From Eledone cirrhosa (lineage: Eukaryota), in contig OZ024746.1 in the NCBI GenBank assembly GCA_964016885.1, positions 69,626,001-69,690,000 of the forward strand: a stretch of DNA of 64,000 bases, written 5' to 3'. How positions within the stretch are numbered: position 1 is the first letter of the stretch; each line of letters opens with the position of its first letter. The position numbers and the translations under genes are program-made. Positions 16,893-55,751 of the stretch are shown here, in pieces. The notes beneath the pieces are model-generated. The model ran no database searches, had not been told where the DNA came from, and saw nothing but the letters and a program-made list of their open reading frames with translations.

Positions 16893-17100
16893 ATGCCAAC
16901 CAAAAGGAAGACTTCAAAAAATTCGCAATGGCTCAATATGGCAACGGGCTTCCTTGCCCTAGGGCTGTTGTTGTTCATTATCGGGTTTTCCACTGCACAT
17001 TGGGTGGTGCTAAGTAATAAACACATGGGACTTTGGGAACTATATACTTGTGTTGATGGAAGTTGCTATGAGATGTCTGCCGTCAGTAGACACAATGCTG
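16893..17100 (+). CDS. First coding exon (copy A) of a claudin/PMP22-EMP-MP20-superfamily tetraspan protein: N-terminus, TM1 and extracellular loop 1
   Basis: AAAATG start, hydrophobic helix GFLALGLLLFIIGFST, then W..GLW..C..C. Donor G|GTAAGT at 17101, phase 1. Two paralogues in the window. Confidence 0.75.
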
Positions 17101-18220
17101 GTAAGTTACCTACTTTTAAAAATATATTGAATATATTTGACCAGTTGATGTCATGTGTCCTTTAAACAATTGCCTATTATGTGTCGGGGCCCCTTATCAA
17201 TATTATATCTATATCAATATCCCTCTCTCGTATATATATATATATATATATATATATATATATATATAACGGAATACTCCTAATAATTCCGAATAATAGG
17301 TGGTTTTAGAGGCAAGAAATCTTAGGTTCCGTTTCGAATCTTCGCCAGGTAAAACATAGTAGAATTCTGTTACATCTTCATTAGTCAACAATTTTTTAGC
17401 CAGTGTCACCTTGGCTGGGCTGTGTAAACACACCTCTGGTACTCAGTAGTCAGCAATCTTTTAGCTAGTGTCACCATAGCTGAGTAGGAAAAATACACAT
17501 CTGGCCCTCAACTGTTTGTTAGTCAGTGTCACCCTAGCTGAGCAGTGTAAACACCTCTAGCCCGCAGAACTTGGCTAGGTAGTATATCTCAACTACTCAT
17601 GAAAATCAAAATGATGAAGACATTGCAACAGAGAGCAGCCAGTGATAGCCGCTGCATTAGCCATTCCAACGGAGCAAACTCTACACACGAGGTCAGTCAG
17701 TATATCTTAGCTGTTCCTCCCAGACAAGATGGCGAAAACATTCCTGCGGAGAACAGCCAACGCCACACATTGCATCAGGTATTTCACCTCATGGGGCTCT
17801 TTATTTTAGGTCTGATACCCTCCTCCCGATCTTGCGAATAGTAGGTAGGGTGAAGGAGGATCCGTGGGTAAATTCATTCAAAATAACCGGAATGCTTGGT
17901 AGTGGACGGGTTGGTAAACACTACACTATATTCTTGAAGGGAGTGCTCCAGCATGGCTGCAAAGAAATAGCTGAAACCAGGAAACCAGTACAAAAAAAAA
18001 TACAAAAACAATTCACTGCTATAATTCTTTTTCTTCTTCTTCTTCTGTCACCTCCTAATACACCCCCTCCTCCTGTCACTTTATCCCCACCCCTCAAACT
18101 GTATTATCTACTATGTTATAACTAGGTCTACTGTTAAGCCATCAGGACCACCTGGCTTCAAGTAGGTTGACAGTAACTTGTAAATATTGCTGAGATTCAC
18201 GCTGCTGTTTATCCTAGTCA

Positions 18221-18540
18221 CATCATCATCATCATCACCTTCTTCATCCCCACCATCATTATCGTTCTCATTATCCTCATTATCATTACCACCAACACCA
18301 CCACCACCAGTACCAATACCACCGTCATCCTCCTCACCCATCACCACTATCATCTCTACACCAACATCATCCCACCACCACCACCACCACCACCACCATA
18401 AACCTACTACCATCACCCTACCAACAGGAATAATATCACTCTACCACCACCACCACCACCACCCTCACCCCATCATCTCCACTACCACGATCATCCCACA
18501 CTCACCCGCATCAACCCCACCTCCACCACCACCATATACA
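18221..18540. repeat. Degenerate CAT/CAC trinucleotide repeat (duplicate at 25446-25752)
   Basis: Seen directly. Confidence 0.9.
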
Positions 18541-18634
18541 TAGAAGTGTTCAGTTCATTATTCCACCTCCCCAAATCTTACCATGTTGATGTTAACAATT
18601 TATGGAATAATTCAACTTCCAACTATCATCTGTT

Positions 18635-19825
18635 AAACAGATGATAGTTGTGGCTGACCAGATGATAGCTTAGGCTGACCAGATGGTAGTTATGGCTGAC
18701 CAGATGATAGCTATGGCTGACCAGATGGTAGCTATGGCTGACCAGATGGTAGCTATGGCTGACTAGATGGTAGCTATGGCTGACCAGATGGTAGCTATGG
18801 CTGACCAGATGGTAGCTATGGCTGACCAGATGGAAGCTATGGCTGACCATATGGTAGCTATGGCTGACCAGATGATAGCTATGGCTGACCAGATGGTAGC
18901 TATGGCTGACCAGATGGAAGCTATGGCTGACCATATGGTAGCTATGGCTGACCAGATGGTAGCTATGGCTGACTAGATGCTAGCTATGGCTGACCAGATG
19001 ATAGCTATGGCTGACCAGATGGTAGCTATGGCTGACCAGATGGAAGCTATGGCTGACCATATGGTAGCTATGGCTGACCAGATGTTAGCTATGGCTGACT
19101 AGATGGTAGCTATGGCTGACCAGATGGTAGCTATGGCTGACCAGATGGTAGCTATGGCGGACTAGATGGTAGCTATGGCTGACCAGATGATAGCTATGGC
19201 TGACCGGATGGTAGCTATGGCTGACTAGATAGTAGCTATGGCTGACCAAATGGAAGCTATGGCTGACCAGATGGTAGCTATGGCTGACTAGATGGTAGCT
19301 ATGGCTGACCAGATGGTAGCTATGGCGGACTAGATGGTAGCTATGGCTGACCAGATGATAGCTATGGCTGACCAAATGGTAGCTATGGCTGACTAGATAG
19401 TAGCTATGGCTGACCAAATGGAAGCTATGGCTGACCAGATGGTAGCTATGTATGACTAGATGGTAGCTATGGCTGACCAGATGGTTGCTGTGGCTGACCA
19501 GATGGAAGCTGTGGCTGACTAGATGGTCGCTATGTATGACCAGATGGTAGCTATGTATGACTAGATGGTAGCTATGTATGACTAGATGGTAACTATGGCT
19601 GACTAGATGGTAGCTATGGCTGACTAGATGGTAACTATGGCTGACTAGATGGTAGCTATGGCTGACTAGATGGTAACTATGGCTGACTAGATGGTAACTA
19701 TGGCTGACTAGATGGTAGCTATGGCTGACTAGATGGTAACTATAGCTGACTAGATGGTAGCTATGGCTGACCAGATGATAGCTATGTATGACCAGGTGGT
19801 AGCTATGTATGACCAGATGGTAGCT
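18635..19825. repeat. 21-bp minisatellite (GATGGTAGCTATGGCTGACCA)n
   Basis: More than 50 tandem units. Confidence 0.97.
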
Positions 19826-19861
19826 CGGTTTCGAATCTTCGCCGGTAAAATATAGGAGTAT

Positions 19862-52690: not shown

Positions 52691-52792
52691 GTTTCCTTGA
52701 AATGTGTTTCCTTGAAATGTGTTTCCTTGAAATGTGTTTCCTTGAAATGTGTTTCCTTGAAATGTGTTTCCTTGAAATGTGTTTCCTTGAAA
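52691..52792. repeat. 15-bp tandem repeat (GTTTCCTTGAAATGT), about 6.8 copies
   Basis: Seen directly. Confidence 0.95.
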
Positions 52793-54133
52793 ACCCGTAT
52801 GACTCTAAAACCCGGTTTGTCTGTTTGGTTACATACAGACTAGCTGGACACTCACACTAAAATGTCCAGTGAAAAACTCAGTACATGTACATATGTATAC
52901 ATGTGTGTATTTATATGCATACTAATATTTCCGTATACATATGTAGATGTACACTTTTAACTTAATTATATATATATATATTTATATATATATATATATT
53001 TATTTATATATATATATTTATATATATATATATATATTTATATATATATATTTATATATATATATATATTTATATATATATTTATATATATATATTTATA
53101 TATATATATTTATATATATATATATATTTATATTTATATATATATATATATTTATATATATATATATATTTATATATACATATATATTTATATATATATA
53201 TATATTTATATATATATATATATTTATTTATATATATATATATATATTTATATATATATATATATATATTTATATATATATATATATTTATATATATATA
53301 TATATATATATTTATATATATATATATATATATTTATATATATATATATATATATATATATATATATATATATATATATATATATATATATATAAAAATT
53401 TGTAGGCTATTTATATATATATTTATATATTTATATATATATTTATATATATATTTATATATATATATATAAATCAAAAGTATAGAAATTATTGTGAGCA
53501 TGAAGCCAACAGTATTTCATAATATATAAGTGACTATAGCGTCAAAATGGGAAAATAATTAACGTAAGATGTGGGAAAATTATATATATATATATATATA
53601 TAGAGAGAGAGAGATAGAGAGAGAGAGAGAGAGAGAGAGAGAGAGAGAGAGAGAGAGAGAGATAGAGAGAGAGAGAGAGAGAGAGATGAGATTCTACAGG
53701 ACTAGAACTGTTTCATTCTTTAGAAATCATCAGGAATCATCAGGTGGTTCCTGGTGATTTCTAAAGAATGAAACAGTTCTAGTCCTGTAGAATCTCATCT
53801 ATATTAAAACTTTTATACTCTGCTATGTATTGAGTACCTTACTTACTGTGGTTACCTCCGATTCAACCCTGAATATCGTATATATATATATATATATATA
53901 TATATATATATATATATATAATTTAGCTCACCTGTATGGTATCAACTTGTAATACAGATACGATTAGCGGTGGTCAAAGGTGAAGGGAAAACACACAATT
54001 GAGTAATTCACTCAAGTGCTTTGTTTTCTCCCCTTAATTGGCTACTCTGACATTGGGAGATTACAGGTTTAAACTTCTTTTGAGGTTGGATACAGAAATG
54101 ATAGTCGTCCGCCACTCTTATTGACCCTGTCAT

Positions 54134-54995
54134 TACTAACTACTACTACTACTGCTGCTGCTGCTACTACTACTACTACTACTACTACTACTACTACTAC
54201 TACTACTACTACTCTACTGTTGTTACTACTACTACTACTACTACTCTACTGTTGTTACTACTACTACTACTGCTGCTGCTGCTGCTGCTGCTGCTGTTGC
54301 TACTACTACTACTACTACTACTACTACTACTACTGTTGCTACTACTACTACTGCTACTACTACTGCTACTACTACTACTACTACTACTACTACTACTGCT
54401 ACTACTTCTTCTACTACTACTACGACTACTACTACTACTACTGCTGATGCTGCTACTGCTACTATTGCTGCTGCTGCTGGTGGTGGTGGTGGTGCTGCTG
54501 CTGCTGCTACTACTACTACTACTACTGCTGCTTCTAATGCTGCTGCTGCTACTACTACTACTGCTACTGATACTACTACTACTACTACTGTTTCTGCTAT
54601 TACTATTGCTACTACTATTGACCATATTCAACAATTAATACCACTACAACCTCCACCACTTCCACTACTACCAGCGCTGCCACTACCACTACAACCACCG
54701 CCACCACAAACACTACCATCACCATCACTACATCCACCACCACCACCACAACCAACACAACCACCACCACCAACAACAACACCACCACCATCACCACTAT
54801 CATCACCACCAACACCACCATCTTCAACAACAACACTACCACCACCACCACCATCATCACAACCAACACAACCACCACCACCACCATCAACAACAACAAC
54901 ACCATCACCTCCAACAACGACACTACCACCACCATCACAACCAAAACAACTACAACCACCACCACCATTACTACCATCGCCAACACCACCACCAA
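54134..54995. repeat. Trinucleotide repeat block (ACT/GCT, then ACC/AAC)
   Basis: Seen directly. Confidence 0.95.
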
Positions 54996-55531
54996 TGATC
55001 GTTCTGTAAAATTATCGCCCTCCTCCTTGTGCACTTTGCAACCCTGGGTTTATTCATAAGGAAATTAAACGGCCTCCGTTTAGTTGGATACTTGTGGCTC
55101 TTTTGTTAGATATAATTCAACAAAGAAATAAAGAAATCAACTAATAAAGTAAAACAAAGGACTGTGAATGAGTCAAATGTTAGTGCAACTCTCCAAAATA
55201 GATGTTAGATGTTAAGTGAAGGTACAAATTAAGAGAGTGTTAGGTCGGGAGCTGAGTTAAGTCCGGACAAATAGCAGAGTCAACTACGTGATGGTGTGCC
55301 ATTCGTAGCAGAGGCTTACCTCATTTGTCCAAATCCGTTGTGCTGTTCACATCGCCGAGACAGAAAACAGAAGTAAACACTTACTTATAACTACTACAAC
55401 AACTACTTCTACTACTACTACTACTACTACTACTTCTACTACTACTACAACTACTACTACTACTACTACTTCTACTACTACGACAACTGCACCGGTTAGG
55501 ACAGTAACAACTGACATTCTCTCAAGACAAG

Positions 55532-55751
55532 ATGCCGATGAATTTTGCCAGCTCCGCATCCAAATGGATGAAATTTGCTCTTGCTTCGCATTTCTTCGGA
55601 ACACTCATGTTTGTTGTGGGTTTTTCGACTTATGCTTGGCTCCAAGAATCTCTGAAAGGAAACTCTATTAACGTGGGACTTTGGAAAACTAGGTCCTGTG
55701 ACAGAAACGGAGGTTGCATCACATTTGATTCAGTTTCAAGCCATTCTCAAG
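55532..55751 (+). CDS. First coding exon (copy C, divergent) of a claudin/PMP22-like protein
   Basis: MPMNFASSASKWMKFALASHFFGTLMFVVGFSTYAW..GLWKTRSCDRNGGC..SVSSHSQ. Shares S.W, F..GFST..W, GLW-x4-C and VS.H with copies A and B. Donor G|GTAAAT at 55752, phase 1. Confidence 0.78.

Follow-up and report, generated by a model that had tools for sequence, protein, structure and literature searches.

We analyzed a stretch of 64,000 nucleotides from the genome of Eledone cirrhosa (assembly GCA_964016885.1, C6:69626001-69690000; hereafter the window), which carries three first exons, A, B and C, of what is likely one gene of the PMP22/claudin family. Four alternative first exons, D, A, B and C, would share one pair of constant exons in this gene, and the choice of promoter would decide which extracellular loop the protein carries. 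A preliminary description, made from the letters of the window alone, had listed three co-oriented exons, and these are confirmed as real, in frame and in phase 1: each of A, B and C runs from an ATG to a GT donor placed after the first base of a codon and encodes the hydrophobic first transmembrane helix (TM1) followed by W..GLW-x4-C-x4/5-C. The W-GLW-C-C loop motif, which we take to be the signature of the superfamily, is found in all of D, A, B and C.

The remainder of the gene was located with profiles of the N-terminal and C-terminal halves (N-half and C-half) made from 35 relatives and run against all six frames of 264 kb, i.e. the window with 150 kb upstream and 50 kb downstream. The N-half profile gave exactly four exon-1 matches (E 1e-18 to 5e-23; next match E 2.5), and exons 2 and 3 were the only matches of the C-half profile, with zero inside the window. 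Searches of the whole 3.0 Gb genome, which score best candidates only, returned four exon-1 matches, one exon 2 and one exon 3; further exon-1 copies elsewhere were rejected, the remaining matches having E 0.05 or worse and the one distant match that was inspected being weak, with no recognisable start, donor or cysteine pair. Private TM2-TM4 exons were sought within and near the window by tblastn, blastn and hidden Markov model (264 kb) and none was found, which agrees with the earlier failure to recognise such an exon between B and C or after C, while the search for additional copies that the preliminary description had proposed yielded exon D upstream and a single exon 2. Exon D, like the excess of amino acid differences between A and B set out below, was absent from that description and was found here. 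The locus is arranged as a variable-first-exon cluster of four variable tandem paralogous exons and 1+1 constant exons (Table 1). The summed exon lengths give open frames of 168 (D), 167 (A), 168 (B) and 171 (C) residues, and the introns leading to exon 2 would span 86.0 (D), 57.9 (A), 50.8 (B) and 19.2 kb (C).

Table 1. Features of the locus; positions are those of the window unless prefixed with C6.
Feature	Position	Strand	Remarks	Source
First exon D	C6:69614729-69614939		11 kb upstream of window	genome search
First exon A	16893..17100	+	208 nt coding, phase 1, intact frame	
First exon B	23970..24180	+	211 nt coding, phase 1; contig joins exon B to exon 2	
First exon C	55532..55751	+	220 nt coding, phase 1; conserved type	
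Shared exon 2	C6:69700951-69701097		11 kb past window end	genome search
Shared exon 3, coding part	C6:69707138-69707286		17 kb past window end	genome search
Gene extent	1..64000	+	whole window spanned, continuing past both ends	
Tandem unit, copy 1	11547..19825		SINE-like piece, TG repeat, LINE fragment, exon A, 21-mer array	self-BLAST, TRF
Tandem unit, copy 2	19847..27061		carries exon B	self-BLAST, TRF
GC-box-like heptamer	16566..16572	+	327 nt upstream of ATG A; candidate promoter element	
GC-box-like heptamer	23643..23649	+	327 nt upstream of ATG B; inside 15-nt block retained upstream of D	
Assembly gap	38511..38710		200 N, true size unknown; between exons B and C	
SINE, short interspersed element; LINE, long interspersed element; TRF, Tandem Repeats Finder.

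Splicing was examined in sequencing runs of this species. The B region is present in 4 of the 7 listed runs, none of which is recorded as RNA. Runs X1-X3 come from one sample, comprise about 1400 million letters apiece and show DNA-like cover across exon and flanks; run X4, from another sample, consists of 88 million letters in contigs, and only its size and its pattern of cover suggest that it is RNA. Its cover extends over 23901-24180 and not over the flanks, except for a repeat and one trace, and the intron after the exon B donor is without cover. One X4 contig (contig 31) matches 23901-24180 with 0 differences and then continues for 26 bases that are the start of exon 2; it is a B-to-exon-2 junction across 50.8 kb in which C is skipped. 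Another (contig 32) holds letters of D followed by 114 loose bases, which equal the remaining 88 bases of D plus 26. The last 4 bases of B and D are identical, and 4 plus 26 makes 30, the overlap of 31-mer contigs at one node. With these bases in common, the two contigs would close on one identical 30-mer, as is expected of paths that meet in a 31-mer graph, and from this we infer a D-to-exon-2 junction.

The same swap is visible in two Octopus orthologs, LOC115213003 of O. sinensis and LOC106869694 of O. bimaculoides. Both RefSeq genes are named "uncharacterized" and both are represented in the protein collection by two isoforms, isoform X1 with a C-type and isoform X2 with a B-type N-half; within each species the C-halves of the pair are 100% identical and the N-halves 40%, the evidence here being protein sequences, not mRNA models. 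Identity to these Octopus proteins is 93% for exon C (against the isoform X1 N-half of both species), 90% for exon 2, 84% for exon 3, 70% for B and 64% for A. Taken with the contigs, this gives alternative coding first exons on one exon 2, as in CLDN10 and CLDN18, shown for B, inferred for D and seen for C by way of the orthologs. Exon C is likely joined to the constant part, D likely too, and A would be. The proposal that several first exons serve one shared TM2-TM4 half is thus upheld by the B contig, by the single exons 2 and 3 beyond the window and by the Octopus isoforms.

More distant relatives, about 36-50% identical, occur in gastropods and bivalves, and one scallop relative carries the name lens-fiber-membrane-intrinsic-protein-like. 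Four scallop relatives (P0016, P0035-P0037) are all named isoform X2, their other isoforms being unseen, and the oyster proteins (P0020, P0030) include a relative named isoform X3 and a second paralog under an adjacent gene id; alternative first exons may extend more widely in molluscs. Two cuttlefish-like proteins (P0011/P0012) have identical C-halves and 87% identical N-halves, but possibly come from two species and were not counted as evidence. A C-type exon was not found beyond octopods in what was a weak search.

A model of the O. sinensis isoform X2 protein, predicted from a 29-row alignment (predicted local distance difference test score 86, predicted template modelling score 0.78), has four transmembrane helices and a beta-sheet in the first loop. 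Helix 13-34 and four strands come from the first exon, and the next helix, 71-99, begins right at the junction (residue 70/71), so that each first exon would supply an N-terminal tail, TM1 and a predicted four-strand outer sheet, 69-73 residues in all. Mouse claudin-15 matches the model with Z 18.8 and a root mean square deviation of 2.6 over 162 residues; fold matches are level at Z 18-19 among GSG1L, the TARPs, claudin-15 and MP20. The claudin-clan profile match that had been named as a check is obtained with two orthologous isoform X1 proteins, which score 51.7 and 49.5 bits against the PF00822 cut-off of 26.7, and is weak or missing for single exons, all below cut-off (B, Claudin_2 E 0.026; C, PMP22_Claudin E 0.025; A, no claudin-clan match).

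Classic tight-junction claudins have a cytoplasmic tail with a PDZ-binding end. The frame here ends a few residues past TM4, with Lys as last residue and no recognisable PDZ end, which makes the protein a PMP22/claudin-superfamily tetraspan rather than a classic claudin; short length and tail are presumably similar to those of MP20 and PMP22. The PF00822 match and the fold are shared with the tetraspans PMP22/EMP/MP20 (LIM2) and TARP/GSG1L, although identity to the solved members listed is 14-24% only. The top Foldseek and phmmer matches are TARPs, at about 20% identity. The TTPV tail of type I TARPs and TARP-A is not present in the octopod protein, and in the account cited it is also absent from TARP-B and type II TARPs (PMC9282427). 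Exon D alone has an N-glycosylation sequon in the first loop (codons 44-46), and just before TM1 it carries Ser at codon 14, a position that is Trp in A, B, C and the Octopus orthologs; a D-type contig is still present in run X4. By analogy with the family, in which the first loop is described as setting permeability or partner choice (PMC11464258), the product is likely a tetraspan of the cell surface that acts in junctions or adhesion, and its exposed loop may be tuned per tissue or partner.

How a first exon is chosen can be read in part from the upstream DNA. Several upstream blocks are common to B and D, including one with a GC-box-like heptamer, at -327 (B) and -288 (D), and the X4 contigs reach about 70 nt upstream of the ATG for B and about 95 nt for D. 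A TAC/CTA triplet repeat at 55390-55490, 40-140 nt upstream of ATG C, is possibly part of a 5' untranslated region or promoter. Each first exon is likely chosen via its own promoter: a transcript begun at one first exon would be spliced from the donor of that exon, past any first exon further downstream, as B is shown to skip C, and the choice would exchange N-tail, TM1 and predicted outer beta-sheet while the TM2-TM4 scaffold stays fixed.

A number of observations count against a four-exon, promoter-chosen array. Run X4 lacks an RNA record and represents one sample of one study, and its contigs give no start sites, strand or expression level. The stretch compared with the run contigs excluded C, so the C junction rests on the orthologs. 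The preliminary description had asked for junctions converging on one acceptor past position 64000; this was read for B and is likely for D, and no A-specific letters, which are present in DNA-like runs X1-X3, appear in X4. The missing A says little because contigs collapse A and B, run X3 showing an A-type contig only, among rows shown, though runs X1 and X2 of the same sample carry both types; we did not use it as a sign of silence. Upstream, the GC-box-like heptamer is absent from the 1 kb preceding C, and AG acceptor-like sites lie about 150-165 nt before ATG B and ATG D. Since the contigs cannot show where transcription starts and such sites are present, promoter choice is likely but unproven, and the acceptor-like sites leave room for a single promoter and a shared non-coding leader exon, with the first coding exons as mutually exclusive internal cassettes. 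This arrangement appears improbable, as the X4 contigs start in the upstream DNA of their own exon, with no foreign loose end among rows shown, and the promoter-like blocks were duplicated together with the exons. Far less probable still are separate genes, in which B, A or D would have private exons 2 and 3 in the sequence gap between B and C or absent from the assembly; the size of that gap and the ranking of best candidates by the genome searches would allow them, but the 26 bases following B are those of the single assembled exon 2, and in two other species both N-halves stand under one gene id with identical C-halves.

Exons A and B sit within two copies of a 7-8 kb tandem unit and are hence not independent exons. 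The preliminary description had given the DNA between them as repeat or duplicated, and the tandem units are a correction to it. The two exons differ at 20 of 208 aligned bases and by one codon, with 19.5 non-synonymous and 0.5 synonymous differences (non-synonymous divergence, dN, 0.134; synonymous divergence, dS, 0.010), whereas five alignable flank blocks, pooled and counted with microsatellite and 21-mer arrays excluded, differ at 18 of 2093 bases (0.9%; exon versus flanks, Fisher p 4e-12). The excess holds if the exon is taken as 14 events (p 2e-7), and synonymous sites are in line with the flanks (at most 1/48, p 0.35). Both sequences occur in DNA-like runs and so do not stem from base-calling errors. 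The derived state is mostly that of A, the one-codon loss and a basic N-tail included. Between B and D divergence is greatest in the loop (proportion of non-synonymous differences 0.35, against 0.11 in TM1). In a tree of 23 N-halves the C-type exons form the sole strongly supported group, and D, A, B, the isoform X2 exons, an Argonauta protein and four cuttlefish-like sequences cluster with weak support; this grouping suggests an old split between C and D/A/B, with young D/A/B copies. On these comparisons C appears to be an old conserved isoform and the D/A/B type a fast-evolving one that underwent a further duplication in this lineage. Selection for amino acid change likely drove A and B apart, while the flanks of the pair are likely either too young to differ or homogenised by gene conversion.

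Selection on the A/B pair has to be set against results that favour it less. The within-exon test is modest (P 0.007-0.03 for 19 of 20 changes) and gives P 0.06-0.11 on the 8 single-change codons alone; 10 of the 20 changes fall in the N-tail and TM1, outside the loop; and B versus D, with dN 0.28 and dS 0.25, is non-significant. An excess that is not adaptive, due to mutations of several bases at once or to a loosened constraint on A, with flanks evened by gene conversion, would also account for the 6 of 14 changed codons that differ at two positions and for changes skewed to A and spread across N-tail, TM1 and loop. We nevertheless regard it as doubtful, as the exon stands above its flanks even when counted as events, synonymous sites match those flanks, neutral conversion has no reason to spare replacement sites alone, and this exon type evolves fast between species too. 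Equally relevant is whether A is a working exon. That only three exons function, A being a silent recent copy or A and B being alleles assembled in tandem, strikes us as unlikely, though a serious contender: A letters were not seen in X4, flank blocks so similar accompany large presence/absence differences (the LINE fragment), as in alleles, the changes are mostly derived in A, and the contig depth of the shared flanks, summed over runs X1-X3, is about 31-32 against 24 for D, below twofold. Against it, no gap separates the units and 20-30 nt at their junction do not recur where unit 2 ends; the frame and donor of A are intact, and its upstream region hardly differs from that of B; run X3 shows how contigs collapse the pair; and the depth of A and B together exceeds that of D in two of three DNA-like runs (19.2 versus 7.2 and 14.1 versus 8.8; the third run has A only, 3.05 versus 8.1). 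Such depths are noisy (3.05-17 across runs) and leave paralog versus allele unsettled, which is a further mark against the four-exon count.

On a reading that we offer tentatively and hold less likely than not, an octopod claudin-fold gene has become a small and still growing variable-exon array, with C conserved and the duplicated first exons driven apart by positive selection acting at the protein surface, as a recognition or evasion repertoire on a common scaffold. The selective driver would be tissue barrier tuning or escape from a loop-binder, and the two are indistinguishable on these data. The scallop and oyster isoform names hint at a possibly mollusc-wide swap.

The rest of the window consists of microsatellites, a short dispersed repeat and reverse-transcriptase fragments, and an Rfam scan gave 0 matches. 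Two LINE-type reverse-transcriptase frames, 13468-15762 (+, 764 codons) and 2-1546 (-, 515 codons), are 76% related; the former, present in unit 1 only, lies about 1.1 kb upstream of exon A beside the TG repeat, and could make the regulation of A differ from that of B. Broken or partial retrotransposon frames occur at 3747-7616, 8270-9229 and 49811-50752, and three scanned pieces match RVT_1. Each tandem unit is closed by a 21-bp minisatellite of 56-58 copies with long stop-free frames (18651-19825 and 25849-27061), which may have taken part in the duplication. At the unit junction (19826-19858) a short piece resembles, by eye, about 17330-17362 just downstream of exon A, and the junction looks like a template switch. 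A SINE-like dispersed repeat of about 190 bp is found at 33893-34480 and in more than 12 other places; one occurrence comprises three tandem copies, and another lies about 20 nt inside the intron that follows exon C.

Searches of the open-licence literature, supplements excluded, found no paper on an octopus claudin with alternative first exons, and none combining claudin with tandem exon duplication and positive selection or naming the Octopus gene ids; other listings, judged by titles and the openings of abstracts (for one of them 15 of 81 rows), had nothing on this gene. The Octopus RefSeq genes encode orthologous proteins with the same C-type/B-type N-half swap on one C-half; two isoforms per species were found there in the protein collection, against four first exons here. 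The two-isoform half of the finding is already visible in RefSeq, and the new parts are the four-exon array and the A/B divergence. The A/B pair offers a snapshot of exon duplicates whose coding sequence is about 10 times more different than the adjacent DNA, and four naturally occurring first-loop variants, all on one and the same TM2-TM4 scaffold, provide a ready test of the role of the loop in an invertebrate claudin-like protein.

The plan of tandem variable 5' exons followed by constant exons is the one used by clustered protocadherins and chelicerate sDscam, described as generally having a promoter per exon (PMC4835542), and by UGT1, described as a tandem variable 5' exon array (PMC3325998). 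The octopod array is far smaller than those of protocadherins, UGT1A and sDscam and encodes a tetraspan in place of a cadherin, an enzyme or an Ig protein. Protocadherins and sDscam are further marked by a stochastic choice in each cell and by homophilic recognition, of which the octopod sequences gave no sign. The first-exon swap itself is known from vertebrate CLDN10a/b and CLDN18.1/18.2, and the preliminary remark that none was known for a claudin-like gene does not hold. CLDN10 is described as having two first-exon variants, the anion channel 10a and the cation channel 10b, in different tissues (PMC7642450), and makes the same swap with two variants. A charge-selectivity switch of the CLDN10a/b type was considered and is not apparent in the octopod protein, as the four loops (D, A, B and C) are close in charge count, with 2-4 K/R and 2-3 D/E. 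CLDN18 has first exons 1a and 1b on a common exon 2, and its isoforms are reported to differ at the N-terminus, over 69 residues that take in the first extracellular loop (PMC11464258, PMC12317400). The design is the same here, with 69-73 residues swapped against 69 and four first exons against two, although CLDN18 is a genuine claudin of tight junctions whose expression in lung and stomach is known. Cephalopod exons group on a single, weakly supported branch, from which the octopod array is likely independent of CLDN18, and we see in it an invertebrate example, likely of separate origin, of the CLDN10/CLDN18 design, built on the same N-terminal module and extended beyond two exons.

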